Source: a virus
Taxonomy: Duplodnaviria; Heunggongvirae; Uroviricota; Caudoviricetes
Length of the DNA: 64,000 bases
Strand: one strand, 5' to 3'
IMG/VR virus record: IMGVR_UViG_2574180019_000006
Shown here: positions 8,755 to 47,698 of the stretch, piece after piece
Layout: every line of letters starts with the position of its first letter
How positions within the stretch are numbered: the stretch's first letter is position 1
Program-made: the position numbers and the translations under genes
The notes under the pieces: generated by a model
The model's database searches: none
Told to the model about the DNA's origin: nothing
The model's input: only the letters and a program-made list of their open reading frames with translations

Positions 8755-8775
8755 AAGATAACAACTTGTTTAAAC
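8755..8775. promoter_or_regulatory. Palindrome AAACAA-N-TTGTTT upstream of nrdB (operator or 5'-UTR hairpin)
   Basis: ataacaacttgtttaaac ~30 nt upstream of ATG; same motif recurs upstream of many ORFs. Confidence 0.4.
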
Positions 8776-8802
8776 GCACCAAAAAAGAAAAAGGAAAAAC
8801 AC

Positions 8803-9945
8803 ATGTCATATTCAACGTTCCGTTTGGGTGCTAATGATGCAACCAAAGAGCCTATGTTCCTCGGACAATCTGTCAACGTGGCACGTTACGATCAGCAAAA
8901 ATACCGTGATTTTGAAAAGTTGATTGAACGTCAATTGTCTTTCTTCTGGCGGCCGGAAGAAGTTGATATTTCGAGCGATCGTATCGACTTCAACACGAAG
9001 CTGCGGGACCACGAACGTCACATTTTTCTGAGCAATCTCCGTTATCAAACGTTACTCGATTCAGTTCAGGGACGTAGTCCAAATGCAACGCTGCTGCCGC
9101 TTATCTCTATTCCTGAACTGGAAACGTGGGTTGAAACGTGGTCTTTCTCTGAGACTATCCATAGCCGCAGCTACACCCACATTATTCGTGGCATGGTGGA
9201 CGATCCGAGCATTGTTTTTGACGGTATTGTTACGGATGAAGAAATCATCAACCGAGCGATCAGTATCTCTGCTGAATATGACAGGCTTTATGGGATGACC
9301 TGCGAGCGCCAGTCGTTAGGTGAGAAGGAATTTGAGCGTCTGTACGTAAATGAATATGGCTGGGAGCCATACCCTTTGCATCGTCAGCTTTTCCGCACGT
9401 TGGTGTCCATTAATGCGCTTGAGGCGATCCGTTTCTACGTAAGTTTTGCATGTACGTTTGCCTTTGGTGAACGGAAGTTGCTTGAGGGTAACACCAAAAT
9501 TATGCGCTTTATTGCCCGTGATGAAGCTCTGCATTGCGAAGGAACTGAACGCATGATCCGCTTCATGCGTACCGGTCGCGAAGGTTTATTGTGGAAAGAG
9601 ATTGCTGCTGATGAAGAAAACGTCATTTACGACACCATGAAATCAGTCGCCGAACAAGAAATGAACTGGGCAGACTATCTCTTCAAAGACGGTTCGATGA
9701 TTGGTTTAAACGCGGATATTCTCAAAACCTATGTAAAATACCGCACCAATCTGGCTATGAATCGTCTTGGCCTGAAGGCTTTATTTCCAGAAGTTACCAC
9801 TGATCCGCTGGTCTGGATGAACAAGTGGTTGTTAACCGACACACTGCAAATTGCACCACAAGAGGCAGAGCAAAGCACATATCTGGTAGGTCAGATCGAT
9901 TCTACCGTGGATAAGGCTTCTCTAAGCCAGTTTGCAGACCTGTAA
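8803..9945 (+). CDS. nrdB: Ribonucleotide reductase class Ia small subunit
   Basis: 380 aa; near-colinear with E. coli NrdB as recalled ([83 protein letters not shown]). Confidence 0.9.
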
Positions 9946-10022
9946 ACCGATACAAAGCATTATGTGGCCTGGCAACGCTGGGCCACAATGGATCACAAGA
10001 ATTAAGAAGGAGCAAAACTAGC

Positions 10023-10892
10023 ATGAACTTTACCAAACTGACTGACCACCTGAAACTTGCCACCGATCGACTCATTGGATTTAAGCCAGAACCATATGAG
10101 TTGCATGAAGGCCATGGTGTAGCCACTGAAAGTATTTACAAGATGGTCGATCAGTTTCATGAACTCTTCCAGCATCCGAGACGCGTTATGCCGACACCAG
10201 AGCTGCTTCGTCTCCGTGCAAGCCTGATTCATGAAGAAGCTGTAGTGGAAGGTATTCCAGCCGCAATGAATGGGGATATTGAGCAACTGCTGGATGCAAT
10301 GGCCGACTTTTTATACGTTGGTGTTGGTACGATGGTCGCCATCAAAGGTGGTATTTCTACCGGCATGACTTATTACACGCAGGAACAGAGCATTGATCGC
10401 TTTATGCAGACAATTTTTGTGCCTGGTAACACTGTTTTCGATGATATGGCAATGCCATTTCAGGAAGCTCGTGAGGCGTCATGTATGCTCGAAGAGCTGG
10501 CAGATAAACTTGAGAAGAAGACTGTTAAGGATTCTGAGCTGATTCAGGAACTGCGCCGTGTAATGAACAAAATCTATGTGGCGTGCATGATGACTTATCG
10601 ACTGGCTGATTTTCTCGGTATCAATGTCGTCGAGCTGGTTGGCGAAATTCATCGGTCCAACATGACAAAATTATGGCCTGCAGATGCCGAAGAGCGTCGC
10701 CATGCTGTGGCCAACTGCAAATACGACTCTTCTGACCTGGGATTTCGCCATGCTGATGGCACCGATAAGATGATCGGTTTTCGAATTTCCGATGGAAAGA
10801 TTCTGAAGTCTCCAACCTATAGTGATGTCGATTTATCCTCCTTTGTTGAGCAAGCTAAAGCCTCAGCAATGTACGGAATGATCAAAAAATAA
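10023..10892 (+). CDS. putative all-alpha NTP pyrophosphohydrolase (MazG/dimeric-dUTPase-like)
   Basis: Segment IHEEAVVEGIPAAMNGDIEQLLDAMADFLYV fits MazG-type E-E-x2-E ... E-x2-D-x2-D-F-L pattern; nucleotide-metabolism neighbourhood. Confidence 0.4.
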   Translation: MNFTKLTDHLKLATDRLIGFKPEPYELHEGHGVATESIYKMVDQFHELFQHPRRVMPTPELLRLRASLIHEEAVVEGIPAAMNGDIEQLLDAMADFLYVGVGTMVAIKGGISTGMTYYTQEQSIDRFMQTIFVPGNTVFDDMAMPFQEAREASCMLEELADKLEKKTVKDSELIQELRRVMNKIYVACMMTYRLADFLGINVVELVGEIHRSNMTKLWPADAEERRHAVANCKYDSSDLGFRHADGTDKMIGFRISDGKILKSPTYSDVDLSSFVEQAKASAMYGMIKK

Positions 10893-10960
10893 TTGTAGGT
10901 AGTTATCTATCTGTGTATATTGCGCTGGCGCGTTAAATTTCTGAAACAACTATTCGTTTT

Positions 10961-10988
10961 TGGTGGCCTATGGCCACCATTTTTTTAT
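10961..10988 (+). terminator. Rho-independent terminator
   Basis: tggtggcctatggccacca hairpin followed by T7 run. Confidence 0.55.
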
Positions 10989-11036
10989 CTGTCTGGTCTT
11001 GTTCTCTCAATAAATGTAAACTCACGCAATGAATAA

Positions 11037-12167
11037 GTGGTTACTTATCTTTGTGAGGTTTTTGTGTCACTCCTTTTGAATCGTGAGCATACGAACGGTC
11101 AGGTAACAAACGCATCGTATGCAAAAGTTATTGAGACGGTGCTTAAAAGCGGCGTGCAGGCTGATGATCGCACAGGCACTGGTACTTTAAGCACCTGTTA
11201 CGTTCCCTCTTACTACATGCTTACTGGTGGGACTGTGCCGCTTATTTCTGGAAAGGCGGTAAATCTTAAGCCACTGCTTGTCGAACTTGAGTGGTATCTG
11301 AAAGGCACGGGCAACATCCAATTTCTCAAGGATAACGGCGTTAAGATTTGGGATGCATGGGCCGATGAGAATGGCGATTTGGGGCCGGTTTACGGTAAGC
11401 AGTGGCGTCGATGGGAAGATACCCGCATCGTGAGCCATAGTGAATATCTGAGCAAGATCGCTACTTTCCGTGAACGCGGGTACAAAGTCGAGGGATACCT
11501 GGGTATCAGTGAAGATCGCGTAGTGCTGTCCCGTGAAATCGATCAGCTACAGCGTATTGTCGATACACTGCGCACGAACCCTACCGATCGTCGCATCATG
11601 CTTAACGCATGGAACGTAGGCGAGCTTGAGGATATGAAACTGCCACCTTGCCACTTTGTCTTCTCTTTGTGGAGTCGTGAACTGGATTTTGAAACCCGTT
11701 TAACGATGGCAACTGACATTGGTCTTCAACACAGTCGCCTCGGTTACGAGTCTATCTACACCAAGATGCTATACGATCTGGAGATGGACGGCAGTGTTAC
11801 TGAAACTGAACTGGATGAACTTGGAATCCCCAAACGCATCCTCAACTCCTGCCTCGTACAGCGTAGCGTAGACACTTTTGTTGGTATGCCATTCAATATT
11901 GCTGGCTATGGCATTCTCACTCATTTTCTCGCGAAGATTACGGGTCACATGGCCGGTGCATTTGTGCATTTTGGCTTTGACGTGCATTTGTACAACAACC
12001 ACATGGAAGGTGTGTGTGAGCTAATGCAACGACAGGCTCCAGAGCATTCAGATCCGGTCGTTATATTCCCTAATGAATGGTCTGAGCTGGATGATTTCAA
12101 ATGGGACGAGATTCTTATTCTTGGCTATGCCCCTCTACCGTGGATCAAGGTTCCAGTGGCGGTGTGA
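11037..12167 (+). CDS. thyA: Thymidylate synthase (ThyA-like) with two large insertions; true start probably GTG at 11064
   Basis: Conserved ThyA blocks DDRTGTGTLS, WADENGDLGPVYGKQWR, DRRIMLNAWNVGELEDMKLPPCHFVFSLW (catalytic Cys), VDTFVGMPFNIAGYGILTHF, HLYNNHME, GYAPLPWIKVPVAV; ~35-aa and ~60-aa inserts relative to E. coli ThyA. Confidence 0.8.
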   Translation: MVTYLCEVFVSLLLNREHTNGQVTNASYAKVIETVLKSGVQADDRTGTGTLSTCYVPSYYMLTGGTVPLISGKAVNLKPLLVELEWYLKGTGNIQFLKDNGVKIWDAWADENGDLGPVYGKQWRRWEDTRIVSHSEYLSKIATFRERGYKVEGYLGISEDRVVLSREIDQLQRIVDTLRTNPTDRRIMLNAWNVGELEDMKLPPCHFVFSLWSRELDFETRLTMATDIGLQHSRLGYESIYTKMLYDLEMDGSVTETELDELGIPKRILNSCLVQRSVDTFVGMPFNIAGYGILTHFLAKITGHMAGAFVHFGFDVHLYNNHMEGVCELMQRQAPEHSDPVVIFPNEWSELDDFKWDEILILGYAPLPWIKVPVAV

Positions 12168-12168
12168 T

Positions 12169-12582
12169 ATGGCAAGAGGTATGTATGTCTTATGCGAAAT
12201 TGAAGGTGTGCTGGCAAATACCAGCCATCGTAAATCTGTATCTGACTCGGATGCAGGCCAATTCATTGCAGGTGATGAACTCATTTTCCCCACCAGCCGT
12301 ATGTTGCGTGGTTTTGCTCGCTCAGGGGCTGAAGTGGTGCTTATCAGTAGCCGCTCTGAAACTCTTGAAGCGCCCACTAAACGATGGCTGAAAGATTTTG
12401 GTGTTGATTACGACTGGCTTCATCTCGTACCGAATAGCACCAGTTATGAGAAGCATATTAAGCGCACATTAGCGGAGCATAAAGGCGATCTGCTTATCGC
12501 TGCGCTGGTGCACGATCCTCGACTCCGTGCCGCTTTAGCTGACTCTCATCATAGACCGGTCATCTATGAGGTGAGCAAATGA
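12169..12582 (+). CDS. hypothetical protein (possible HAD-like fold, non-canonical)
   Basis: ORF between thyA and DHFR; ATG overlaps thyA stop region; no canonical DxDGT motif. Confidence 0.35.
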   Translation: MARGMYVLCEIEGVLANTSHRKSVSDSDAGQFIAGDELIFPTSRMLRGFARSGAEVVLISSRSETLEAPTKRWLKDFGVDYDWLHLVPNSTSYEKHIKRTLAEHKGDLLIAALVHDPRLRAALADSHHRPVIYEVSK

Positions 12583-13699: not shown

Positions 13700-13760
13700 A
13701 AATTGTTCGCCTCTTCGACATTGCGACAATAAAACTCTCAAAATGGGTTAAGGATAAAAA

Positions 13761-14180: not shown

Positions 14181-14189
14181 GGAGTTCTG

Positions 14190-14747: not shown

Positions 14748-14749
14748 AA

Positions 14750-15886: not shown

Positions 15887-15897
15887 CGAGAAAGAAG

Positions 15898-16491: not shown

Positions 16492-16520
16492 TTTGTTCTG
16501 GCGTCTGTAATTAGCCTGCT

Positions 16521-16565
16521 TCTGTATATATAAATAACTACATATTAATTATTAATATACGGAAG
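16521..16565. repeat. AT-rich palindromic element, copy 1 of 2 (ctgtatatataaata...ttaatatacggaag)
   Basis: ~55-bp element with conserved flanks duplicated at 47571-47625. Confidence 0.5.
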
Positions 16566-16676
16566 AAGGCTGTTTTGTATCAGAGACTCCAGACCTGAAC
16601 ATCACTACAGAATCCACTAGAGCCCCTTCCCAGACGCTTTAAAATCGATTTTATAAACCACTTTAAGGAAACCAAC

Positions 16677-18973: not shown

Positions 18974-18990
18974 GAAAACAACTTGTTTTG
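18974..18990. promoter_or_regulatory. Palindrome gaaaacaacttgttttg upstream of TerB-like gene
   Basis: AAACAA-N-TTGTTT family, ~25 nt upstream of ATG followed by aaaaggaaaacacATG. Confidence 0.4.
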
Positions 18991-19012
18991 ACAAATAACA
19001 AAAGGAAAACAC

Positions 19013-19438
19013 ATGTTAGGTTTCTTCAAAAAGAAAACTCGTAAAGCTGTTATCGAAGTCAAAAAAATGGAGAACCGTGATGCGGTTGAGGCCACCGTGT
19101 GGGGCGCGTACATGATCTCCTATGCCGACGGCACATGTGACGCAAAAGAAATTGCCATTCTTGAGAAGACAATTGCAGCTCTGCCTGCGTTTTCTCCGTT
19201 TGCTGGTGAAATTGCCCAAATGAGCGCCAATATCCGTGCTCGTTACGAAGCGTCCCCTCGTTCTGCTAATGCACAGGCTATTCGTGAGCTGTCTGATATT
19301 GCGGGGACTCCAGAGGCGGTCGATGTTTTGTGTCTGTGCCTTGATATTGCCGATCAGGACGGCATTGGTGAACAAGAAGAGCAGGCACTGAAAAAGATCG
19401 CCCAGGCGCTTCAGTTGTCACTGGATGCTTATCTCTAA
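19013..19438 (+). CDS. putative TerB-like domain protein
   Basis: 141 aa; two acidic Asp/Glu-rich helical repeats (YADGTCDAKEIAILEK; DQDGIGEQEEQALKK) resembling TerB/DjlA-N fold; assignment tentative. Confidence 0.35.
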   Translation: MLGFFKKKTRKAVIEVKKMENRDAVEATVWGAYMISYADGTCDAKEIAILEKTIAALPAFSPFAGEIAQMSANIRARYEASPRSANAQAIRELSDIAGTPEAVDVLCLCLDIADQDGIGEQEEQALKKIAQALQLSLDAYL

Positions 19439-19702: not shown

Positions 19703-19720
19703 GAAAACAACTTGTTTAAG
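19703..19720. promoter_or_regulatory. Palindrome gaaaacaacttgtttaag
   Basis: AAACAA-N-TTGTTT family upstream of ORF 19736. Confidence 0.4.
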
Positions 19721-19735
19721 CATTAGGAAAAACAC

Positions 19736-20302
19736 ATGTGCAAGAAATGCAAAGCGATAGCTGATGAACAAAACGCCTTATTCGAAGAAATGGATGCTAA
19801 TGAACTGGTCAAAATGTTAGCCATTCTTCGAGGAATAGAAGACGTTTCCATATTTGAGAGACTGTTTACAATACTTAATTTTAATTCCACCTTTGAAGAG
19901 CCAACTCAGATTGTAGCTTTGGCACACCATTTCGGTGTTCATTACCTTGCTGAAAAAGAGAGAGCTGATAAGTTGCAAGCGACTTTGGATATGGTGAGCG
20001 AGACTCAAGAAACTGATGACGGTAACAAAAGTGAGACGATTATTGCCAGCAAAGATCGTGAAATTGCCGGGCTTAAATCCTCTCTAACGATGTTGATGTC
20101 TGCAATCAACCTTATGTCTTCTAAAGCAGGTTCTAAAATGCCATCACTAAACAGCGACGATCCGATGGCCGTTCGCCAGCTTTTAGGTGCAATGGCCGAC
20201 CAGCTCGACGACACAAAGAGTCGCCTTGAAGACATGATGCGGGAGCTCACGCATCGCCATGACTTGAATAAGCAGCCGCACAAAACGCAATACGCACTCT
20301 AA
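19736..20302 (+). CDS. hypothetical protein (188 aa)
   Basis: ORF preceded by conserved ggaaaaacacATG leader. Confidence 0.45.
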   Translation: MCKKCKAIADEQNALFEEMDANELVKMLAILRGIEDVSIFERLFTILNFNSTFEEPTQIVALAHHFGVHYLAEKERADKLQATLDMVSETQETDDGNKSETIIASKDREIAGLKSSLTMLMSAINLMSSKAGSKMPSLNSDDPMAVRQLLGAMADQLDDTKSRLEDMMRELTHRHDLNKQPHKTQYAL

Positions 20303-20343: not shown

Positions 20344-20443
20344 GCCTTAAATCTGCTGTAACGCCTATGAATGCAGCTTTTATGCCTTTTCAAGTTTGCG
20401 ATAATTACACCAATCAGAAAACAAATTATTTAATGGTGTAATT

Positions 20444-22149: not shown

Positions 22150-22190
22150 TTGTGTAAGAATGTAGTTACTAAACGATAAGAGAAAAACAC

Positions 22191-22895
22191 ATGAACAACC
22201 TCCAGTTAGAGCATTTTAACGTCACAGGCCATTCTGATTTTCCTTTCAAGTTTACATTGAAAGGTTATGCAGAGGATGCGGTAGGCCAGATCATTATTGA
22301 TAAAGGCATCGTTAAGTTTGAGGGGAATTTTGATGAATCCGCGAAAACATTCATAGACTTCGTTGCCAAACGTTGGAGCGAGCAATGGAAAGACCTGGAA
22401 AAGCGCGCTAATGAGTTTGATCGGTTCATGGATGCAATGGATACAGCAAAAGAGGCTCTTGCTGCCGGGACTCCGTTAGATCTGGAGTCACTTTTCAACG
22501 GCGAAGTGGCCTCTGCGATGTTCGCCACCATGTTCGCGGGTGAGTTCGTCCGCAGCGGTGCCAAAAACTACCTTGAGCTGGATTACAACGTCCCTGCAAT
22601 TGGCGACTTCGTCGTTACCATCCAACGCAAAGAAGGTAAGACGCCAGGTGAACGCGTCGCAGAGCTTGAGGCCGTTGTGGAACAGCGTAACGGAGAGTGT
22701 GACCGTTTGATCAACGAGCTTCATGCACTTCGGGAAGAAAGAATATGTGCGGGTAGCAATACACGTAATGCTGCGGATATCTACTTCCAGTTAGTCGAGG
22801 AATGCCAGATTCCACCAGGTGGCTCTCTTGTCGATTACGTCAGACATTTAATGGCGGAAGTTAACTCCAGCCATAAAGATGGTGAGGTGCGCTGA
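22191..22895 (+). CDS. hypothetical protein (234 aa)
   Basis: ORF with conserved gagaaaaacacATG leader. Confidence 0.45.
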   Translation: MNNLQLEHFNVTGHSDFPFKFTLKGYAEDAVGQIIIDKGIVKFEGNFDESAKTFIDFVAKRWSEQWKDLEKRANEFDRFMDAMDTAKEALAAGTPLDLESLFNGEVASAMFATMFAGEFVRSGAKNYLELDYNVPAIGDFVVTIQRKEGKTPGERVAELEAVVEQRNGECDRLINELHALREERICAGSNTRNAADIYFQLVEECQIPPGGSLVDYVRHLMAEVNSSHKDGEVR

Positions 22896-23305: not shown

Positions 23306-23340
23306 AAGGCCATAAGTTGTGGCCTTAAATAAATTGTTTT
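23306..23340 (+). terminator. Rho-independent terminator
   Basis: aaaggccataagttgtggcctt hairpin followed by aaataaattgtttt. Confidence 0.45.
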
Positions 23341-23394
23341 CCACCTTTTCTTATTTGTGAAAATAACCACAACTAGAAAACAACGGAGTTAAGA

Positions 23395-27309: not shown

Positions 27310-27600
27310 TCTATTTTTAACCCAACATACCCTCAATACTGCAACATCAGTGTCTTGCGAATTAAGATAGTGTGAATAGATTTTTCATGCAAGTGCATAA
27401 GCCTGTGGATAACTCAGGAAGGAAAAAGTGACTTCTGCGCACTTTAGACCGGACAAGGCGTTCGAAAAAGTCAATGGGAAGAAAAAATTTGTTAAAAATA
27501 ACGTTTGTTTGAATTGTATATATTTATGCCTTTCAATAGTTAGCATCTTATTAACATCTTTTTTAAGAGATAGAGTTCAAAAATATATAGCTTCAATATA

Positions 27601-27620
27601 TACTGTATGTGTATACAGTA
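27601..27620. promoter_or_regulatory. LexA (SOS) box
   Basis: tactgtatgtgtatacagta = CTGT-N8-ACAG palindrome matching the LexA operator consensus, 16 nt upstream of the UmuD'-like start with RBS aagagg between. Confidence 0.7.
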
Positions 27621-27636
27621 TTAAGAGGCGAGTATT

Positions 27637-28026
27637 ATGGGCTTCCCTTCTCCTGCGGCGGATTATGTTGAGAGCCGTATTTCTCTTGATCAGCAGATAA
27701 TTAGACATCCTTCAGCGACCTACTTCATGAGAGCGGCTGACAGCCATCATCGTGAGGGAATATTGCAGGGCGCATTGCTGGTGGTCGATTCCTCACTTAC
27801 CCCGGTTGATGGTTCTCTGCTTGTATGCGCTCTGGATGGGGAATATCGCGTAAAAAGATACCGGAAGTATCCACGTCAGCATCTGGAGGATTTAAGAACT
27901 GGTAAGAAGGAAGCATTGCCAAAGGATGACGATGGATGCACGGGCAGCAATGCCGTGTTTGGTGTGATCACTCACATTATCAACGACGCAAGAAGTGGCG
28001 AGTTTGATGATTGTCCCGTGATGTAG
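27637..28026 (+). CDS. UmuD'-like S24 peptidase-family protein (starts at the position equivalent to the UmuD autocleavage product)
   Basis: MGFPSPAADYVESRISLDQQIIRHPSATYF nearly identical to E. coli UmuD residues ~25-55 as recalled; Ser of GDS(M) retained as ADSH and Lys in VKRY; C-terminal third diverged; no umuC follows. Confidence 0.7.
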   Translation: MGFPSPAADYVESRISLDQQIIRHPSATYFMRAADSHHREGILQGALLVVDSSLTPVDGSLLVCALDGEYRVKRYRKYPRQHLEDLRTGKKEALPKDDDGCTGSNAVFGVITHIINDARSGEFDDCPVM

Positions 28027-31436: not shown

Positions 31437-31504
31437 CTAAAACAATTTGTTTTCTACCTTTTGTTGATTGAGATAATAAGCCACATAAGAAAACAAATTG
31501 TTTC
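31437..31504. promoter_or_regulatory. Two tandem AAACAA-N-TTGTTT palindromes immediately right of metG
   Basis: taaaacaatttgttttc (31437-31454) and gaaaacaaattgtttc (31489-31504); first phage-type motif after host block. Confidence 0.4.
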
Positions 31505-33299: not shown

Positions 33300-34100
33300 G
33301 TTATGGTTGTTTATACAAATAAGAAAACAACTAAATAACAGATCAACGAAACGTCAACGCTTTCACCCGATTTGGTCTAAAAAATTGACGTTTTCACACA
33401 TCACTTCTTATACCCGTAACTCTACGCAGCAGACAGCGCCACAGCGTCCAATTTTCACCACAGACGACCCAACACACTACCAACAAAAACACACGCTCAA
33501 AATCGCTCCCGTTGCGTTACACAACCATATAAACAACTTATTTTCAGGCATAACAAAACAACTAAATAACACACATGCCATTCCCAAAAACAACCAACCT
33601 CTTTATGGCAGGCTACCGAAAAGACCCACCTCTTCTCCCCAGGCTACCGGACAACCAACCTAACTTTCACAGGCAATCCGAAAACATTCATACGCGCAAT
33701 ACCCACGACACGCCATTCCCCAAACAGCGAAGAAACACCAGAATCACTGAAACCCCAACGAAGCCTGTAACCGCAAGGATTCTCTCAATCCCAAAAGACA
33801 CGAAACATAACAATCACGGGAAATACCATTACCCAATACACGAATAACTACAAAAGCCTTTCACACACTCCAGACAAACAACTCAAACACAATAACGAAA
33901 GGAATCGCCCACCTGCCATTACTCCATACACGGAGAAGAACAATCACCAAAACGACGAGAACACCCCATAGAAGAACCACCGCAAAACGAACGAAACCAC
34001 ATACACCGACAGAGAGAACAACACACCCAATTCACCAACAGAAATAGTCGCCGTATAGAACGTTCTGGAAGGAGTGAGCATTAACGCCTATAGAGAGGTT
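33300..34100. other. ORF-free, strongly strand-asymmetric (A+C-rich, G-poor on plus strand) region with internal short repeats
   Basis: No ORF >=60 aa on minus strand; plus-strand ORFs are low-complexity; repeated aaaacaactaaataaca units; composition visibly skewed. Confidence 0.5.
33590..33670. repeat. ~80-bp repeat R, copy 1 (caaccaacctc...caggctaccg...cccacct...ggctaccgg...aactttc)
   Basis: ~75% identical by eye to copy at 37115-37200. Confidence 0.45.
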
Positions 34101-34246
34101 GAGACAGATAAAAACAACATGTATAGCGAAGAAGCCAGGTATGTATAAGTGGGGAGGGAAGGAGGGGTGTCGCCTCCTTTTTCGTATTTATTCAACTCCT
34201 GATTTTATCCCCCCGTAACACCCCTACGGTCAGCCTTCGGTCCATA

Positions 34247-34385
34247 CAGGGAAAAGGTTGCATCCCGCTACAGAAACGGCTGGGTTGCCTTCGGGGAACG
34301 GCTGGGGATTTTCAGGGAAACGGTCGAGTTGCCTGTGTGGATTTCGGGAAAAGGCTCGATGCCGGTTCAGGAACGGCGGCGTACC
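34247..34385. repeat. Iteron-like tandem array 1: six degenerate ~22-bp units with core (C)AGGGAAA(A/C)GG(C/T)TG
   Basis: cagggaaaaggttgcat / cagaaacggctgggttgc / ggggaacggctgggg / cagggaaacggtcgag / cgggaaaaggctcgatg / caggaacggcggcg in direct orientation. Confidence 0.55.
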
Positions 34386-34710
34386 GGTATAGCGAGAGGG
34401 AGAGTTGCGGCTACCCACCTGTAATGTGCGGGAAGAAGAGAGGCGCTCACGTAGGCGGACTTGCTTACCGCTGGATTCCCTCTGAATGCCCAGCTACAGC
34501 GTAATTGTGCCAGACAGCCAACGGGGCACAATCGATTTCAGTAGGTTTTTGGGGAGAGGATTACTCTGCCACCAGCCACTTTCGGCCACTAAATCAGAAT
34601 AATGTAAAAAGTGTACTCGGTACTGAACCTGAAAACTCACTGCCAAAACCACATTCACCGGAATAAAATCCTTTTTCGCCTGTGCGTTATTGCGATAATA
34701 ACACCAACAA

Positions 34711-34727
34711 GTAAACAACATGTTTAG
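34711..34727. promoter_or_regulatory. Palindrome gtaaacaacatgtttag
   Basis: AAACAA-N-TTGTTT family upstream of ORF 34758. Confidence 0.4.
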
Positions 34728-34976: not shown

Positions 34977-35114
34977 GAGTGAGGCCACCAGCACGGTGGC
35001 TTTTGTCGCTATTAACCTCCGGGCAGCGCAGCACCGTAACGATATACTTTGTGGCCGTTTTCTTACTGGTATTATTTACGCAATTCAGAAAACAACATGT
35101 TTAAGGATTGCGTT

Positions 35115-35444: not shown

Positions 35445-35597
35445 CCCCAACCAAAGCCAGCATTGCTGGCTTAATTTCTCTATAGCCGCAGGGAAGAACC
35501 TGCATATCGCTCATGCGCCTGATCAATATGCTTTGTAGCCGTTTTCTTACTGGTATTATTTACGCCATTGAGAAAACAAGTTGTTTACGGAGTTGTA

Positions 35598-36431: not shown

Positions 36432-36548
36432 TCCTCTTTAAATGGCGCGTAAACCGCGCCATTTTATTAAGCCCGATAACAATTTGTTTTCTGCCTTATC
36501 TGATTTGTGAAAATGATTTCACTGAAGCAACTTAATAAGGAAACCATC

Positions 36549-36923
36549 ATGGGACTTGATATCTATATCGAGACACAGCCTAAAAACGATCTGAATAACG
36601 AGGCATCCAGAAAGCAGGTTGCTTACTTCCGTAAGTTCAATGCGCTCGTTGGGTGGATGGAGCGCAACGTAGGTGAAGTCGAAAATTGTGAGCTTTTAGA
36701 ATTAACGATGAATGACATTTGTTTTCTGAAGGCTCATTTGATGCACATAAACGAAAGTAATTGCGAAGAGTACTTGCCTACCCGGGAAGGTTTTTTCTTC
36801 GGCAGTCAGGAGTACGATGAAGGTTACTGGCATGATGTGGGGCAGTTGAAAGAGCTTGTGGAAGATCTGATTAAGAACCACGACTTTCACAATAACAGAC
36901 TGACCTTCTGCGCCTGGTGGTAA
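36549..36923 (+). CDS. hypothetical protein (~124 aa)
   Basis: ATG 36549 with RBS aaggaaacc; palindrome gataacaatttgttttc at 36475-36491. Confidence 0.45.
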   Translation: MGLDIYIETQPKNDLNNEASRKQVAYFRKFNALVGWMERNVGEVENCELLELTMNDICFLKAHLMHINESNCEEYLPTREGFFFGSQEYDEGYWHDVGQLKELVEDLIKNHDFHNNRLTFCAWW

Positions 36924-36925
36924 AT

Positions 36926-37069
36926 ATGGGCGATTTCAAGAAACGCCTGAAGGAAAGAGCCGAGATGGTCAGAAAGCAAAACGCCTCTTCTGTCATCAGA
37001 TACGCAAGGCAGTTTAGTCGCAACAACAAATCAGTTGAGGAAAAGATCCTTAGCGTAATCGTGCGATAA
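36926..37069 (+). CDS. hypothetical small basic protein (47 aa)
   Basis: Not in ORF track; ATG 3 nt after upstream stop; followed by hairpin aggccatcagcattggtggcct. Confidence 0.3.
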   Translation: MGDFKKRLKERAEMVRKQNASSVIRYARQFSRNNKSVEEKILSVIVR

Positions 37070-37200: not shown

Positions 37201-37273
37201 TGACGCCTTATTCGTACAACGATAATTAACACCAACAAGAAAACAATTTGTTATTTACGATAAGGAATTAATC

Positions 37274-37756: not shown

Positions 37757-37805
37757 CTGAGAAGAGGGCCAGAAACGGCCCTTTCTCTATAGCCACCAGC
37801 TGCCG

Positions 37806-37925
37806 CAGGGAAATTTTCAGAAACGGCGAGGAACGTATTCATGAGCCGACGGGGAACGGCCAGGATTTTTTCGGGAAACGGCTGCATTTGCCTTTGTGTA
37901 GAAAAAACATCGGGAAGCTGGTGGA
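37806..37925. repeat. Iteron-like tandem array 2 (agggaaatttt / agaaacggcgagg / ggggaacggccagg / cgggaaacggctgcat / gggaagctggtgg)
   Basis: Same GGGAAACGG-type core as array at 34247-34385, direct orientation, ~3.5 kb apart; single related unit also at ~35497-35513. Confidence 0.5.
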
Positions 37926-38593: not shown

Positions 38594-38614
38594 GATTAAG
38601 CTCCTTAAAAAAAA

Positions 38615-39812: not shown

Positions 39813-40337
39813 TTAAAATGGAAGGATTCGTTCAACCCAATCGAAGAAAACAAGTATTTTTCTGCCGTCTTCTAACTTAAGAGTGACCTGGCAAGCATCA
39901 ACGCCTCTTGACACCCCTTCTATTTCACGACCGTCTGTCATGTAGACCCTTATAGATTGGTCGTTTTGATAAGCCTTGCGACATATCGCAAAAAAGTCAC
40001 GGCGTGATGGCTGATTGTCAACATAGTCTGGATGTATTGTTAGCCTACCTTTGAACTCGCGAGCAATGTCATCGATTACACCTGATTCAATTGTGCTAAT
40101 GCGCTCAAGTGGGAGTCTTATACGATTTTCTTTATCATATGGAATCGGGCATAAATCTAGCTTATTGCGTGAAGGCATTGTCCCCTGAACGTACATGCAA
40201 AACACCTGACCGTCTTCAAGCGTGACTCTTACAGGAATGTTGTTCTTCCGCCAGAACATAAGTATGTTCTCAGCATGTTCGTAGTCTCGCGGCCAGACTT
40301 CAGCCGGTATGCCGTAGGTGATGTCCAATGTTCTCAT
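39813..40337 (-). CDS. hypothetical protein (174 aa), AT-rich cassette
   Basis: ATG overlaps stop of upstream gene (ATGA); RBS aagag; internal duplicated beta-rich segments (VRVTLEDGQVF / VTLKLEDGRKI). Confidence 0.5.
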   Translation of the reverse strand: MRTLDITYGIPAEVWPRDYEHAENILMFWRKNNIPVRVTLEDGQVFCMYVQGTMPSRNKLDLCPIPYDKENRIRLPLERISTIESGVIDDIAREFKGRLTIHPDYVDNQPSRRDFFAICRKAYQNDQSIRVYMTDGREIEGVSRGVDACQVTLKLEDGRKILVFFDWVERILPF

Positions 40338-40948
40338 TCTGATACTCTTAGAGGTGTTTTCAGCAATCCAAATTTAAATTCTTTATTACCAACGACCAAG
40401 AAGGGGACTTCAACATAGATTTTTTTATCGACGGATTTAGAGTTCGCTGTTTTCTTGATGTCGCGAACGATACGTTTTGTTGTGTTTTCATCAATAAACA
40501 ATACCTTCCCACTGGTATTCCCTTCAGTCTTAGCATAAGTGACAATAGGTTCTTCATTGCCAACTCTGATGTTCACTTGGCAACCCGTTGTAGCCATTTC
40601 ATCACAATAGAGTGTACCGTCTTGAATTTCTAAAACAATTCCAGATGGCTTCATGGCCTCGTTAGAGCTTACATTAGCGTTTTCTGGTACTGCGGTCCCG
40701 TTAATTTGCAACCGTAATCTTTCTGTTCCTGCATGAAGTATTGTTTCTTCTGCGTTATCTGAGAATCTATACCAGACTGGTTGAATCAGACCTCGTGATT
40801 TGTATTTTAGTACGTCTTCAGAAGTATACATGCTGTACGTTTTTTGCATGTCAGAGACGAAATCTGATAATGCGTTGGCGGAAAACGCCGGGAGGCATAT
40901 ACAAGCAAGGAGTAACGAAAGTTTCATTTTCATATCATGATAATCCAA
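40334..40948 (-). CDS. putative secreted or lipoprotein (~200 aa), AT-rich cassette
   Basis: N-terminal MKMKLSLLLACICLPAFSA signal-like segment (possible lipobox LLAC or SPase I site AFSA); ORF track begins at TTG. Confidence 0.5.
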   Translation of the reverse strand: MDYHDMKMKLSLLLACICLPAFSANALSDFVSDMQKTYSMYTSEDVLKYKSRGLIQPVWYRFSDNAEETILHAGTERLRLQINGTAVPENANVSSNEAMKPSGIVLEIQDGTLYCDEMATTGCQVNIRVGNEEPIVTYAKTEGNTSGKVLFIDENTTKRIVRDIKKTANSKSVDKKIYVEVPFLVVGNKEFKFGLLKTPLRVSE

Positions 40949-41437
40949 TTATTTAACATCACACTTTCTAAGTTTTTCTATTTGTTCTAATTTTTCATGA
41001 TCATCATTTAGATTTCCTTTGACTATCTCCGTTTCAAGTTTGCTGATTAGCATGTTAAGTGCGTTGTAGTTATTGCATTTTACTTTGTAGGCGTAGTATG
41101 ACCTTGTCCCTGGTTTTTGTACACCCATATCATTAAAGTTAGAGCTTAAAGTATAACCTTCAAGTTCAACCCCTTTTATTGTTGGAAGAATTATATTTAA
41201 TGGTTCTAATTTAAATGGGTAGATATAAATATGTGATATGAAGTACTCTTCTGAAGAGATTTTCTTCATGTCTTTTGTGATTGAAACTGAATATTTACGG
41301 TCCCGAGCGATATAAAATTTTGTACATTTGTACGGCTCTAAGTTGAATAGATAATATCTGTCTTTAAAAAGAACATCTTTTCCATGTGATATTTTATGTC
41401 GTAAAGAGTTAATTATTTTGTTTATAGAAATACTCAT
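40949..41437 (-). CDS. hypothetical protein (162 aa), AT-rich cassette
   Basis: Tightly packed with neighbours; Lys/Asn/Ile-rich composition. Confidence 0.5.
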   Translation of the reverse strand: MSISINKIINSLRHKISHGKDVLFKDRYYLFNLEPYKCTKFYIARDRKYSVSITKDMKKISSEEYFISHIYIYPFKLEPLNIILPTIKGVELEGYTLSSNFNDMGVQKPGTRSYYAYKVKCNNYNALNMLISKLETEIVKGNLNDDHEKLEQIEKLRKCDVK

Positions 41438-41582
41438 CTACAGTATCCGACCTTAGTTATCAATTGAAAAGCCTACAAATATCGTTCAGCCAATCAAGAA
41501 ATTTTTTCAGCCGGAGGTATGTACTTCAAAAAATGTGATGAATGTCACATGCAGGTGCTCTCATACACCTGCATGTAGACTA

Positions 41583-42182: not shown

Positions 42183-42214
42183 AGAATTAGTAGATAGGGG
42201 GTAAATATGAAATG

Positions 42215-42493
42215 TTACGGCAACCTGCTCAGTATTTCCTCTAGATCTTTTTTTGTCATATTGGAGTTCTCATAGATGCGCATGATTTTCTCACGCGTCT
42301 TAGCGGAAACCCCAACGGCAGATGTGACTTTGTCAAATTCAGCCATAGTCATCGTCTCCAGAATGGCATTGATAACTTCAGCCTTAGACATCTTGATTTT
42401 TTTCTCTTTGAGTTTTATTTGAAATTTTCCAAGTTTTTCATTGGCCTTATCAGACAATGCCACTTGGCAATAAGTTGTTTTCTTTTCGCTCAT
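42215..42493 (-). CDS. hypothetical protein (92 aa)
   Basis: Starts 2 nt after helicase stop (coupled). Confidence 0.4.
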   Translation of the reverse strand: MSEKKTTYCQVALSDKANEKLGKFQIKLKEKKIKMSKAEVINAILETMTMAEFDKVTSAVGVSAKTREKIMRIYENSNMTKKDLEEILSRLP

Positions 42494-42495
42494 AA

Positions 42496-44055: not shown

Positions 44056-44100
44056 AAACCTCTTTCCTTAGTGCCTTTTGTATGTTATTTGGCTATTATA

Positions 44101-44121
44101 ATAAGTAAGTGATTACTTAAT
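44101..44121. promoter_or_regulatory. Palindrome ataagtaagtgattacttaat in divergent promoter region
   Basis: Recurrent palindromic element family between divergently transcribed helicase and ParB-like genes. Confidence 0.35.
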
Positions 44122-44818
44122 GGATTGTAGCAATAAAATGGATGTAAAAATCACGATTTTGCAGGTTGATGTTGCCAACCTTCGCCCGAATACCTGGAAC
44201 ACCAATTCGGTTGGTGCGCAGAATTTTGAAAAACTGAAAGGTTCTATCGAAAAATTGGGCTTTTTTAAGCCAATTTTGGCTCGTGAACTTGAAGATGGAT
44301 TTTTTGAAATCCTCGGCGGCGAACATCGCTGGCGTGCCGCTATTGAGCAAGGAATTTCAACGGTTCCGGTGCTTTCTGTGGGCAAAATTAGCGATGTCGT
44401 AGCTAAACAGATGTCACTGGTGGACAACGAGCGATACGGTGAAGACGACCAAATCGCATTGCAACGCTTCATTGAAGAAATTCAGTCAGAGCTTGACTAT
44501 CAACTGTCTGAAATCGCCCCGTATGACGACGAAATCTCGATGGTTTTAGCAAAAGAGGCGGCAATCGACCTTGAAGCACTGGAGGCGTTGTCTCGTGGTA
44601 GTGATGAGCCTGTCGATACCGACAAACGAGAGAAAACCGAACGTGTGGGTGCGGAACATCAGACCATGCGCTTCAAAGTAACTTTCGATGCGTCAGATCG
44701 TGTTGCAGAAACCATAAAAAACATCATCAAAGAGCAGGCTATTAACACCGGTAATGAAATGGAGAACGCTGGTGAGGCTCTGGTGTGGCTGGTTGACTAC
44801 TACAAGGAGCGTATGTAA
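44120..44818 (+). CDS. ParB-like N-terminal nuclease-domain protein 1
   Basis: ParBc motif region ILGGEHRWRAAIEQG; 232 aa. Confidence 0.6.
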   Translation: MDCSNKMDVKITILQVDVANLRPNTWNTNSVGAQNFEKLKGSIEKLGFFKPILARELEDGFFEILGGEHRWRAAIEQGISTVPVLSVGKISDVVAKQMSLVDNERYGEDDQIALQRFIEEIQSELDYQLSEIAPYDDEISMVLAKEAAIDLEALEALSRGSDEPVDTDKREKTERVGAEHQTMRFKVTFDASDRVAETIKNIIKEQAINTGNEMENAGEALVWLVDYYKERM

Positions 44819-45486
44819 TGACCAAAAAGTTTGAAATCGTATATCGCGACCCGGCAGATCTTATTCCCTATGAGATGAATGCCAAAAAGCATGATGAACA
44901 GCAGATCCGAGATCTAGCCGCAGCCATTAAAAAGCGCGGATTTGACCAGCCAATTACGGTCGATAAGAACGACGTAATTATTACTGGCCACGGCCGCCGT
45001 GAGGCTGCAATTTTTGCTGGACTTGAGCGCGTACCGGTTATTGTTCGCGATGATCTCAGTGATGACGAGGTTCGTGCGAAGCGCCTTGAAGATAACCGAC
45101 TTGCCAGCATTGATTACGATGCAATTAAGCTACAGAAAGAGCTTGAGTCGCTTGTTCTGGACGATATCGAGGTTTTCGGCTTTGAAGAGCGTGAGTTGAA
45201 TGTTCTCGTTGGCAGTATGACAGAAGAAATGGACACCGACTCGCTAGTTATCGATCTTGGCGAAGAAACTAAACGACAGAAGGATGAACACACCGAGATC
45301 AGTCGTGAAGTTGCAGCGGAAGAAGTACGTGTTGTCGACGTATTGGGCTTTAAAACGCTCCCTGCTGGCTCTGCCATTGTTGTTGGTGATTTGCTTGCCC
45401 ACATGGAAGAAATGACGGGAGAAAGCGGGGTAGACGCATTTGTGGCATATGCGGAGAAGATCTCTTCCGGGGAGATGGCTGCATGA
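44818..45486 (+). CDS. ParB-like N-terminal nuclease-domain protein 2
   Basis: ITGHGRREAAIFAGLERVPVIV ParBc motif; RBS aaggagcg. Confidence 0.65.
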   Translation: MTKKFEIVYRDPADLIPYEMNAKKHDEQQIRDLAAAIKKRGFDQPITVDKNDVIITGHGRREAAIFAGLERVPVIVRDDLSDDEVRAKRLEDNRLASIDYDAIKLQKELESLVLDDIEVFGFEERELNVLVGSMTEEMDTDSLVIDLGEETKRQKDEHTEISREVAAEEVRVVDVLGFKTLPAGSAIVVGDLLAHMEEMTGESGVDAFVAYAEKISSGEMAA

Positions 45487-46121
45487 GCAAATACATCATC
45501 AACGTATCGTTTCAGACACGCGTAAATAAAACCACGCGCACGTTGGAAATCGCTGAGTCGTTCGGGCTTGGCCTGGACGAAAAAGAGTGGACGCTTTACG
45601 ACAATCTGGAGCTGGAAGTGAAGCAGGGCGATGTGGTGTACATTACCGGCCAATCCGGTTCCGGCAAATCCGTTGTGCTGCGCGAGCTGCAACACCAGAT
45701 GAAGGATGAAGGGCTATCTGTGGCCTCCATCGATGATTTTACCTTCGATAATGAGGTTAACGTCATTGACCAACTGGGCAAAACTACCAGTGATGCGCTT
45801 GGGTTGTTATCTATGGCTGGTCTGAACGATGCATATCTGTTTGTTCGCAAGCCTTCTGAAATGTCAGACGGTCAGAAATATCGTCTCAAGATTGCCAAAC
45901 TGATTGAGTCAGGCGCTAAAGTGTGGGCTGCTGACGAGTTCGGCGCTGTTCTCGACCGTGTAACCGCTCAGGTTGTGGCATCTAACCTCCAGCGTGCCGC
46001 TCGAAAGGTTGGTGCGACGGTAATGGTGGCGACGACTCACGAAGACCTGAAGAACGCGCTGCGCCCGGATATGCAGATCACCAAGCACTACAAAGAACGC
46101 GTGAAGGTGGAATATGCCTGA
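45483..46121 (+). CDS. ABC-type ATPase (stand-alone nucleotide-binding domain)
   Basis: Walker A GQSGSGKS, signature-like MSDGQKYR, Walker B WAADEFGAVLD, H-loop ATTHED. Confidence 0.6.
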   Translation: MSKYIINVSFQTRVNKTTRTLEIAESFGLGLDEKEWTLYDNLELEVKQGDVVYITGQSGSGKSVVLRELQHQMKDEGLSVASIDDFTFDNEVNVIDQLGKTTSDALGLLSMAGLNDAYLFVRKPSEMSDGQKYRLKIAKLIESGAKVWAADEFGAVLDRVTAQVVASNLQRAARKVGATVMVATTHEDLKNALRPDMQITKHYKERVKVEYA

Positions 46122-46368
46122 TTTGAAGATCGTAGAGCTGAAGCCATCGAAAGAGACTGATAACAACAACGTGGAAGTCATCCGCCTGCTGGAAGAAGCA
46201 CTTCAGCACGCCAGAGAAGGAAAAAGCCAGAGCCTGGCGCTGTTGATGATCAACAACGACGGCAGTGTTCTTGATTGCTGGCATAACGGCGGGCGCCCGT
46301 ATGTCATGGTAGGGGCGATGGAGTCTCTTCGCCTGGATTTCATCAATGCCAATATCGAGCGCAGGTGA
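46114..46368 (+). CDS. hypothetical protein (84 aa)
   Basis: RBS gaaggtgg; operon-coupled. Confidence 0.4.
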   Translation: MPDLKIVELKPSKETDNNNVEVIRLLEEALQHAREGKSQSLALLMINNDGSVLDCWHNGGRPYVMVGAMESLRLDFINANIERR

Positions 46369-46373
46369 TCGAG

Positions 46374-47264
46374 ATGGCAGATATCATCATCAAACGCTAC
46401 CGCCCTGAAGAGTTTCCGCGTCATCTGGACTTTCTGGAGCGAATGACTGTCACAAAGGGAACTGTAGAGGACTGGCACGCTCTTAAATCGCTTCACTACA
46501 AAACAGACGGCAAACCTTTCGCGCCAACATACTATCGCTGCGAACTGGATGACCGTCTGGTGGGCGTCGTGGTTATGGCTTACCCGAAACTTCTGCTGGC
46601 ACCTCGCCATCGCATGTTTCCTAAGTTGAAACCAACTACCAATACCACCGTGGCTAACCAGTACTGGGGCCGGTACGTGAATAACAACTTTGCGGTGATC
46701 AGCCGCTCAGTTGTGGATACTCAGTACCGTGGCGTAGGCGTCTCTTATCGAATGATTAACCTGGTTAGCAGGATGCATGACCGGCCAATCATTGAGATCC
46801 AGTCATCGATGAGCAAATACAATCCCTTCGCCATGAAAGCAGGGTTTAAGTTCATCCGCCCTGAGCGACCGAAGAGCTATGAAAGTGCACTGCGTGTGTT
46901 CCAGCGCCATTTCCGCTCCGACCCGGGTGATAACGAGGCGATCGTCAAAGAGTTGTTCGCTATGAGCGAGTCTCGTCGTCGCCGTGCACTGCGTGATCTG
47001 GTGGCGGACTACCACAAGAACAGTTCCCTGGCAAAAGCTGGGCGGAATCGTGGCACGACGATTCAGGACATTGCCGACAGTCTGGTGGACGAGGCCAGCA
47101 TTGTGAAGCTGCTCAAGGACATTCACAACCTGAGCTTTACGTCTCCGTTGTATGGTGTGTATCGAAACCCTGACTTTGGTCGTCGACTGCCTGACACGCT
47201 GCCACTGCTGGCATTCGACAAACAACCTTTGGATAAACCGTTAGAAATTGCTTTACCGGCATAA
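46374..47264 (+). CDS. putative GNAT-family acetyltransferase-like protein
   Basis: Motif A-like VVDTQYRGVGVSYRMINLV and motif B-like NPFAMKAGFKFI; ATG 46374 after aggtga (ORF track starts at GTG 46365). Confidence 0.45.
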   Translation: MADIIIKRYRPEEFPRHLDFLERMTVTKGTVEDWHALKSLHYKTDGKPFAPTYYRCELDDRLVGVVVMAYPKLLLAPRHRMFPKLKPTTNTTVANQYWGRYVNNNFAVISRSVVDTQYRGVGVSYRMINLVSRMHDRPIIEIQSSMSKYNPFAMKAGFKFIRPERPKSYESALRVFQRHFRSDPGDNEAIVKELFAMSESRRRRALRDLVADYHKNSSLAKAGRNRGTTIQDIADSLVDEASIVKLLKDIHNLSFTSPLYGVYRNPDFGRRLPDTLPLLAFDKQPLDKPLEIALPA

Positions 47265-47273
47265 GGATTTGCC

Positions 47274-47540
47274 ATGACGTTAACCGATAAACAAAAGGAC
47301 ATCATCAAAACGCTCAATCTCGGTTATGAGCGAGGTCATCTACTTGACCTGGACGAATTGCTTGAAGTTTTGCCGTACAAGACAACCAAGCAAAGTATCC
47401 AGTTCTCAATTCGCGCTCTGATAAAAAAGGGGCTGGTGGAGAAAGGGCATACGCGCCAACGCAGTGACAATCGCTATCACCGCCGAACTCTTGGGTTAAC
47501 TACTTTAGGTCGAGCCAAAGCGAAGTTACTGGTGATGTAA
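47274..47540 (+). CDS. hypothetical small protein, possible winged-helix DNA-binding
   Basis: 88 aa; RBS aaggatt. Confidence 0.35.
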   Translation: MTLTDKQKDIIKTLNLGYERGHLLDLDELLEVLPYKTTKQSIQFSIRALIKKGLVEKGHTRQRSDNRYHRRTLGLTTLGRAKAKLLVM

Positions 47541-47570
47541 TCGGTCTGGGAGCTTATTTAAAGACCTGTT

Positions 47571-47625
47571 TCTGTATATATAAATAATAAGTAACTTATT
47601 AAATATATACGGAAGCAGGCTTCGT
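47571..47625. repeat. AT-rich palindromic element, copy 2 of 2
   Basis: ttctgtatatataaataa...ttattaaatatatacggaagcaggct; conserved flanks shared with 16521-16565. Confidence 0.5.
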
Positions 47626-47680
47626 AAGACATGCCAGACCTAATTAAACACCCCAGAAAACAAGTTGGTTAGCAGATGCA

Positions 47681-47698
47681 GTAAACAAGTTGTTTTAG
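47681..47698. promoter_or_regulatory. Palindrome gtaaacaagttgttttag upstream of terminase small subunit
   Basis: AAACAA-N-TTGTTT family; a second half-degenerate copy at 47657-47671. Confidence 0.4.

Follow-up and report, generated by a model that had tools for sequence, protein, structure and literature searches.

A dispersed 13-nt palindrome as a likely operator in an SSU5-like phage-plasmid

Palindrome and source element

The 64,000-nucleotide stretch of IMG/VR virus record IMGVR_UViG_2574180019_000006 that was analysed here (the window) carries a 13-nt palindrome, AAACAA-N-TTGTTT (AAACAANTTGTTT), at the fronts of many of its genes. We consider it likely that this palindrome is a DNA operator for a phage-plasmid repressor, serving about 15 promoters in the window and about 20 per genome. 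In the mechanism proposed, a symmetric dimeric DNA-binding protein encoded by the phage-plasmid itself would bind the palindrome in either of two arrangements, centred at about +13/+14, just past an extended -10 sigma-70 promoter in the manner of lac O1, or centred at about -38, over the -35 region. Some promoters have both sites, 51 bp apart and bracketing the core promoter. Binding would block the binding or escape of RNA polymerase, keeping many operons low during plasmid life.

Judged by sequence similarity, the window is part of an SSU5/Cyrano-like E. coli phage-plasmid. It was 96 to 98% identical over most of its length to the Escherichia phage Cyrano (pLF82) and CMS-2020a records and, in parts, about 80 to 88% identical to Salmonella phage SSU5 and to Klebsiella phage-plasmids. 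From these similarities, the window is taken to be 64 kb out of an SSU5-like phage-plasmid of roughly 108 kb. Its gene content includes genes for nucleotide metabolism and recombination, a series of small unknown genes, a block on the minus strand, ParB-like and ABC genes, and the start of the structural operon.

Enrichment and location of the palindrome

The exact palindrome was found 6 times in the window, against 0.01 expected from dinucleotide shuffles. Allowing up to one mismatch gave 15 sites, and allowing up to two gave 23, against 6.4 expected. All 15 sites with at most one mismatch were promoter-proximal, and 12 of them fell in the non-coding 12% of the window, as defined by a crude map of longest open reading frames (ORFs). 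The sites at 35090 and 35574 counted as intra-ORF only because TTG-extended ORFs overshoot the annotated ATG starts, and the third intra-ORF site, at 33531, lies in a doubtful ORF in a G-poor stretch.

The initial annotation of this DNA had listed 12 positions of the palindrome, and all proved to be real sites, offset by 2 to 4 nt (6 exact and 6 with one mismatch). Its count of at least 12 genes was correct for the sites but not for the genes, which number 11, as the sites at 31440 and 31491 precede a single gene. Three further sites, at 23327, 33531 and 47658, were absent from its list, as was a lone half-site at 23375 (AGAAAACAA). The distance of 10 to 40 nt that it gave between palindrome and start codon was found for most sites; the exceptions, about 55 to 60 nt from the ATG, were the upstream-type sites at 23327, 31440 and 36477, the last two of which it had included. 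The occurrence of one cis element at the fronts of many operons was confirmed and is consistent with coordinated control. However, "early regulon", the term first applied to this set, is too narrow, since the set includes terS, at the head of the packaging and structural operon, and since in relatives the palindrome also precedes parA, the replicative helicase gene, cobT and other operons that lie outside the window.

Promoter geometry

An anchored alignment of 36 sites of Cyrano and SSU5 gave the consensus (g)ATAATtAcACCAAcAAGAAAACAAnTTGTTTa, in which the palindrome is often lengthened on its promoter-proximal arm to AGAAAACAA; the duplex form is AGAAAACAAGTTGTTTTCT (19 bp). Across three genomes, a -10-like hexamer ended 13 to 14 nt before the palindrome at 18 of 50 sites, compared with 2.8% of random positions. 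Most of the -10 elements in the window were of the extended type TGnGATAAT (TGCGATAAT, TGGTATTAT and TGAGATAAT). Assuming a transcription start 7 nt past the predicted -10, this arrangement would place the dyad at about +13/+14.

A second arrangement was observed at 23327, 31440 and 36477, where the right arm is extended to TTGTTTTCT and stands 19 nt before an extended -10, which would put the centre near -38. These upstream-type sites come directly after terminators. At 31440 and 31491 both arrangements flank one promoter, 51 bp apart. Only two spacings between neighbours, 51 bp in 7 cases and 25 bp in 3, were seen among ten sequences, which comprised seven IMG/VR loci and three genomes, and the central base was unbiased (A33, G31, C21, T20). 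The palindrome stood anywhere from 11 to 90 nt before the ATG but at a fixed distance from the -10; therefore, it is positioned by the promoter and not by the ribosome-binding site.

Conservation in related phage-plasmids

The palindrome was the commonest exact 6-N-6 palindrome of the window (6 copies), Cyrano (9), SSU5 (11) and Klebsiella pJN2-26 (8, first 50 kb), and related genomes carried 17 to 22 sites each, all promoter-proximal. In IMG/VR relatives with about 70% identity over part of their length (L048, L039/L016, L072 and L121), 6 to 10 sites were found per 9 to 15 kb. A pattern scan of IMG/VR returned mostly single chance matches, with clusters in SSU5-like contigs only. A comparison for covariation or co-occurrence of motif and protein gave no informative contrast, as none of the relatives examined had an altered motif and homologues of three small proteins considered below (the ParG-like, 88-aa and 92-aa proteins) were confined to the SSU5-like group.

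When the orthologous DUF4942 promoters of five genomes were aligned without bias (MAFFT), the extended -10 and AGAAAACAAnTT.TTT stood out as the longest stretches free of variation, in surroundings that were 70% identical. Among paired sites the motif had a mean identity of 93%, compared with 68 to 70% for the flanks, a difference that is biased because partners were picked by motif match. Two of the five DUF4942 promoters had an intact upstream palindrome in place of the degenerate "-35" of the window, suggesting that the TTTnnnGCC element of many promoters here may be a decayed upstream site. In some diverged relatives, direct repeats of the half-site TTGTTTTCT adjoin the palindrome.

The promoters that carry the palindrome are clearly paralogous, sharing a -35 surrogate, an extended -10 and the spacer ACACCAAcAAG. 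The palindrome might be no more than the initial transcribed region of a duplicated promoter module and have no dedicated binder. However, it outconserves the rest of this cassette between genomes, it occurs at two positions and in both orientations relative to the -10, and it is also found without the cassette, for example at parA, terS and nrdB. We regard such a heritage as highly improbable.

The retention of the palindrome in Escherichia, Salmonella and Klebsiella relatives would also be expected if the phage-plasmid exploited a conserved enterobacterial protein, IHF-like or another transcription factor. The 13-mer fits the IHF consensus (WATCAANNNNTTR) at 7 of 9 specified positions on either strand. 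That consensus is asymmetric, with a flanking A-tract in addition, whereas here all 12 symmetric positions are conserved. Furthermore, being the commonest palindrome of each phage-plasmid genome is typical of the site of a self-encoded regulator, and we know of no E. coli regulator with such a site, the host genome not having been scanned. A host factor is very unlikely to be the binder.

DNA or RNA recognition and expression in the lysogen

The initial annotation had allowed for either a DNA operator or a hairpin in the mRNA leader. As RNA, the palindrome would form at most 5 to 6 A-U-rich pairs with a loop of 1 to 3 nt. When 8 leaders were folded, 7 were no more stable than their shuffles (z of -0.7 to +0.8), and the stability of the exceptional leader came from flanking sequence. 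No match was found to Rfam at the gathering threshold in the whole window. These results argue against the hairpin, whereas the DNA operator agrees with the position fixed relative to the -10, the occasional location upstream of the promoter, the dyad with a free central base and the retention in relatives. A dimeric DNA-binding protein is favoured because copies occur after a terminator and before the -10, because the distance to the -10 is fixed, and because the dyad is perfect around a free centre.

Recognition at the RNA level could also involve a single-stranded A-rich/U-rich motif, bound like the hairpin by a translational repressor such as the FljA homologue encoded in the window, on the model of FljA on fliC mRNA or of T4 RegA. 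Most sites do follow the predicted start and precede the Shine-Dalgarno sequence, often by 2 to 10 nt, and the FljA homologue is full length and expressed in the lysogen under several conditions. However, apart from the failure of 7 of 8 leaders to fold better than shuffles, the constant spacing is to the -10 and not to the ATG, the upstream-type sites between terminator and -10 would mostly be untranscribed, and a perfect dyad with a free centre is the requirement of a DNA-binding dimer rather than of an RNA binder. In addition, the E. coli K-12 fliC leader, which FljA is known to target, lacks AAACAANTTGTTT, and the FljA homologue was rejected as the binder on this ground. Overall, an RNA-level operator appears improbable.

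In published RNA-seq data from the LF82 (Cyrano) lysogen (PMC9928086, S1 table), the median over Cyrano genes was 9.8. The genes that follow a palindrome directly scored 5 to 25, at or within about 2.5-fold of background; these were nrdB, the tciA-like gene, CYRAN_87, 90, 93, 101, 105-108, 110 and 111, and terS (PMC9928086). The parA-parG-like operon, whose promoter bears a site, scored 50 to 89 (PMC9928086, S1 table). This pattern fits repression in the plasmid state together with an autoregulated par operon but proves neither, and the negative action of the DNA operator favoured here is inferred.

A second palindrome and candidate binders

An obvious candidate, the CI-like helix-turn-helix (HTH) repressor (CYRAN_45 / pJN226_0108), is probably not the binder of the AAACAA palindrome, as its own promoter has another palindrome, GGTAAGTnCTTACC, instead. 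A second, 18-bp palindrome, TAGGTAAGnnCTTACCTA (duplex form TAGGTAAGTACTTACCTA), was found at 9 sites in the window with up to three mismatches, against 0.1 expected. The 18-mers are at 284, 4968, 15868, 18079, 22130, 44102, 49622, 51129 and 53045, with weaker copies near 10895 and 63135. They are located 5' of sbcD, nrdA, dam and an ead-like gene, between the uvsW and ParB-like genes, and within the structural operon. Variants (GGTAAGTGCTTACC and GGTAAGTACTTACC) stand immediately 5' of the integrase-adjacent CI-like HTH gene in Cyrano (~42600) and pJN2-26 (~90505). TAGGTAAGnnCTTACCTA is thus probably the operator of the CI-like repressor, and since this second palindrome sits before the CI-like gene, the AAACAA palindrome needs another protein. 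The second family also supports the use of dispersed operators by this genome.

Two types of protein are the leading candidates. The first is a ParG/omega-like ribbon-helix-helix (RHH) partner of a type Ib ParA. This ParG-like protein (119 aa; CYRAN_29 in Cyrano, outside the window) is encoded by the gene that follows the type Ib parA gene. In its sequence, a strand-helix-helix signature comes after a basic, disordered tail; the strand, KSRTMS, is invariant among homologues that are 47 to 100% identical. It scored 89 in the lysogen, among the best-expressed conserved small proteins (PMC9928086, S1 table). From its sequence features, it may be regarded as a candidate binder of the omega/ParG type. 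A basic 47-aa protein encoded at 36917-37069 (+) (MGDFKKRLKER...), whose Cyrano counterpart CYRAN_109 is expressed in the lysogen, has the same N-terminal MGDxxKR as the ParG-like protein (MGDLAKRK). The motif may serve in contacts with ParA, or the likeness may be due to chance.

The second type is a small MarR-type winged-helix protein, either the 88-aa protein encoded at 47274..47540 (+), just upstream of the tandem pair of sites before terS, or the homologue of CYRAN_37. The 88-aa protein had been suggested as a cognate binder in the initial annotation. An AlphaFold2 model (pLDDT 82) showed an H-H-H-wing-H topology and matched MepR, AdcR, ZitR and MarR in Foldseek (E about 2e-4, TM 0.7), and the recognition helix was invariant among homologues that are 75 to 100% identical. 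The suggestion therefore stands as a live candidate, but nothing ties this protein specifically to the palindrome. On inspection of its sequence, CYRAN_37 appears to resemble a small winged-helix protein, and a Pfam search with it gave no match.

Other candidates fared less well. A 92-aa RHH-like protein, encoded at 42215-42493 (-) and high in the lysogen, is an unlikely binder, because alternate residues of its strand vary (Y/H/S and A/Q/K) between the window, SSU5 and pJN2-26, which share an unchanged palindrome. These residues are presumed to face the DNA, in an N-terminal beta strand predicted by inspection of the sequence. The small ORFs at 34.7 to 37.1 kb, which had also been proposed to encode DNA-binding proteins, matched no DNA-binding family. 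More widely, the small ORFs behind sites at 31.5 to 37.8 kb matched only PHROG families of unknown function and, in Pfam, nothing or DUF5983. Sequence searches of the PDB with two small proteins were uninformative.

If the ParG-like protein were the binder, the palindromes would be both dispersed centromere-like sites and operators, like the sites of N15 SopB, RK2 KorB and pSM19035 omega, a partition-coupled scheme that is a specific version of the operator explanation and not exclusive of it. The promoter of its own operon, that of parA, has one palindrome at about +14 that is conserved in Cyrano, SSU5 and pJN2-26. The invariant strand and the expression level of the protein point the same way, as do the arrays of direct half-sites (TTGTTTTCT) beside the palindrome in diverged relatives, which are reminiscent of omega heptads. 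However, the site 5' of parA is single, with no repeat array there, and the centromere could instead be another repeat family, GGGAAACGGCTG..TTGCC (34240-34390 and 37800-37900). The protein is encoded outside the window, and its low-confidence model, a monomer, lacks the strand. Partition coupling is possible but doubtful.

Clusters of GGGAAACGGCTGnnTTGCC-like repeats of about 20 bp, at the same two locations, flank the small-gene block. The RepA iterons that surround repA in Cyrano have another sequence (CTCTATAGTGGWT), and these clusters could serve as a centromere or as an array bound by some other protein.

Individual sites

The first site, TAACAACTTGTTT (8759..8771, one mismatch), precedes nrdB (ATG 8803) and has an extra copy of the right arm, CTTGTTTAAAC, 25 nt upstream (8740). 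Its orthologues are at Cyrano 70326, SSU5 70219 and Kp 7490. An insertion sequence (7356-8716) lies between nrdA and nrdB, and the nrdB palindrome is 43 bp past its right end. The insertion has 34-bp terminal inverted repeats (7356-7389 and 8683-8716) and encodes a 372-aa DDE_Tnp_1 transposase (7416-8534); Cyrano is without it.

Exact sites at 18976..18988 and 19705..19717 are 5' of the TerB/TciA-like gene (ATG 19013) and a 188-aa gene (ATG 19736), the latter site having a -10-like CACAAT that ends 13 nt upstream. At the DUF4942 gene (ATG 20444), the site is AAACAAATTATTT (20419..20431, one mismatch), and the extended -10, TGCGATAAT (20397-20405), also ends 13 nt upstream. The upstream-type site AAATAAATTGTTT (23327..23339) comes right behind a terminator hairpin, and the extended -10 TGTGAAAAT (23356-23364) begins 19 nt later, for a centre at about -38. 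The solo half-site AGAAAACAA (23375..23383, +) occupies the downstream-operator position of the same promoter, before the HD-domain gene (ATG 23395). The pair at 31440..31452 (upstream type, centre about -38) and 31491..31503 (downstream type, centre about +13/+14) consists of two exact sites sharing a promoter with the extended -10 TGAGATAAT (31469-31477), followed by a DUF5983-like gene.

The site AAACAACTTATTT (33531..33543, one mismatch) stands at the start of the G-poor stretch, with a half-site-like ACAAAACAA about 10 nt downstream; its orthologues are at Cyrano 94605, SSU5 90740 and Kp 25869. The stretch itself (~33300-34150, 850 nt) is markedly G-poor and C+A-rich and has no convincing ORF. 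The diverged relative L016 has a comparable G-poor stretch (1500-2300) with two palindrome sites. Such a stretch might encode a long non-coding RNA.

Within the small-gene block, the sequence AAACAACATGTTT is found both at 34713..34725, 5' of a 72-aa gene (ATG 34758; extended -10 TGCGATAAT, 34691-34699), and at 35090..35102, 5' of a 109-aa gene (ATG 35115; extended -10 TGGTATTAT, 35067-35075). An exact site follows at 35574..35586, 5' of a 103-aa gene (ATG 35598; extended -10 TGGTATTAT, 35551-35559). The upstream-type site TAACAATTTGTTT (36477..36489) lies behind a terminator and before the extended -10 TGTGAAAAT (36506-36514), and AAACAATTTGTTA (37241..37253) is 5' of a 160-aa gene (ATG 37274; -10 GATAAT, 37221-37226).

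The last two sites, AAACAAGTTGGTT (47658..47670) and an exact copy (47683..47695), form a tandem pair 25 bp apart before the terS/structural operon. Right behind them, the terS leader (47697-47725) contains a terminator-like hairpin, AGAGCGC-ATGGAC-GCGCTCT (stems 47697-47703 and 47710-47716), and then GTGTGTTTT, before the terS ATG at 47736. The hairpin is conserved in SSU5 and pJN2-26, which suggests that the late operon may be controlled by attenuation or antitermination.

A start context had been reported as common to several of these genes. The sequence GGAAAAACACATG was indeed found exactly at 405, 8793 and 19726 and with one mismatch at 22181, against 0.11 expected; before ATG 19013 there is one A fewer. 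The five copies of (A)GGAAAAACACATG (405-417, 8793-8805, 19002-19015, 19726-19738 and 22181-22193) belong to genes of both operator classes. Although the context and the palindrome had been presented as linked features, two of the five genes (415 and 22191) have no upstream AAACAA palindrome, and the two are therefore independent. The context is also present in SSU5 and Klebsiella relatives. Rather than being regulatory, it is probably a strong, preferred Shine-Dalgarno sequence with an A-rich spacer.

Other features of the window

A canonical LexA/SOS box, TACTGTATGTGTATACAGTA, was found at 27595-27636, directly 5' of an ORF at 27637-28026 (+) that encodes a 129-aa UmuD'/HumD-like protein consisting of an S24 peptidase domain alone. 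Its Cyrano homologue was about 15-fold over background in the lysogen. A long AT-rich element, CTGTATATATAAATAA...TTAATATACGGAAGnAGGCT, is common to ~16510-16580 and 47560-47620. It may be a packaging or end region, because the linear records of Cyrano and SSU5 have their ends at the copy at 47560-47620.

The FljA homologue (39813-40337, -) is full length (PF03614, 3e-80) and has a sub-threshold Hfq-like match. In Salmonella, FljA is a translational repressor of fliC mRNA (PMC2652032). The homologue probably acts on host fliC, so that motility would be altered by lysogenic conversion. The gap 41438-41582, upstream of the minus-strand ORFs 40949-41437 and 40334-40948 and the FljA homologue, contains a perfect CRP-type site, TGTGATGAATGTCACA.

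Discussion

Several points weigh against reading the palindrome as a repressor's operator. A generic sigma-70 scan of the window did not call these promoters, because they have an extended -10 with a poor -35, and the +13 and -38 positions were derived from -10 elements that are themselves predictions. Most sites are within the transcribed leader, where a role at the RNA level is possible. Low RNA-seq values could come from promoters that are intrinsically weak or need an activator, and the parA operon has a site and yet is expressed, which is compatible with autoregulation but is no proof of it. The binder is known as candidates only. The ParG-like protein was modelled with low confidence (pLDDT 62), and its true centromere could instead be a separate family of repeats (GGGAAACGGC...). 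For the winged-helix candidates, expression in the LB lysogen was near background, at 7.8 for the 88-aa protein and 6.4 for CYRAN_37 (PMC9928086, S1 table).

By analogy, the palindrome would be functionally akin to the operators of P1 C1, KorA/KorB and omega/ParG, while by sequence it appears to be a member of none of these systems. The likeness to P1 C1 lies in many operators spread over a plasmid prophage of about 100 kb, each overlapping the promoter of a separate operon and keeping lytic or accessory genes off. In P1, a C1 monomer of 283 aa binds asymmetric 17-bp operators (ATTGCTCTAATAAATTT), whereas a perfect palindrome of 13 to 19 bp is found here, together with a second operator family that is seemingly for a CI-like repressor. 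No C1-like protein was found in Pfam and PHROG scans of the candidates.

The KorB operator (OB) of RK2/IncP-1 is likewise a palindromic 13-bp 6-N-6 sequence, with about 12 repeats, some of them overlapping the -35 and others placed elsewhere. With the KorA operator (OA), it coordinates replication, partition and transfer operons through a binder linked to the partition system. However, the sequences are unrelated (OB, TTTAGCSGCTAAA; other Kor operator form, GTTTAGCTAAAC), and KorB belongs to the ParB family of HTH proteins. Both ParB_N proteins of the window (44120-45486) were at background in the lysogen in the published RNA-seq data.

The omega protein of pSM19035 and ParG of TP228 offer a possible parallel, that of a small RHH gene after a type Ib parA, direct or inverted short units, autoregulation and several promoters. 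Their units form arrays of 7 to 10 at few promoters, unlike the mostly single palindromes at about 20 promoters here. Grigoriev and Lobocka are said to have described in 2001, for the phage-plasmid N15, inverted-repeat sites scattered in or near the promoters of lytic and replication genes. N15 SopB is thus another case of a phage-plasmid with dispersed inverted-repeat sites, with four sites and a type Ia SopAB where about 20 sites and a type Ib ParA are found here. The resemblance to lac O1 and other roadblock operators, which are centred at +11 to +14, right past the start, is one of position only. The palindrome does not contain the LexA box CTGT-N8-ACAG, the true SOS box being elsewhere (~27600).

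No description of the motif was found in full-text literature searches, and the operator is apparently undescribed. Dispersed operators in plasmid prophages and global regulons of plasmids are well established, and since the concept is established, the finding is useful to specialists rather than surprising. If the ParG-like protein were the binder, a single RHH protein would segregate the prophage via about 20 sites and also restrain a second tier of promoters, in a partition-coupled two-operator circuit that we put forward as rather doubtful. That tier would comprise the replication helicase, nucleotide metabolism and terminase, would run parallel to and independent of the CI-like repressor, and would be specific to SSU5-like phage-plasmids.

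SSU5-like phage-plasmids (pHCM2, pLF82/Cyrano, and Klebsiella and enterotoxigenic E. coli [ETEC] elements) occur commonly among clinical Enterobacteriaceae, bringing resistance and accessory genes with them, and the circuitry of their lysis-lysogeny decision and plasmid maintenance is essentially uncharacterised. An operator at about 20 promoters, together with a second family linked to CI, would provide a concrete regulatory map for the switching of these elements between plasmid and phage.

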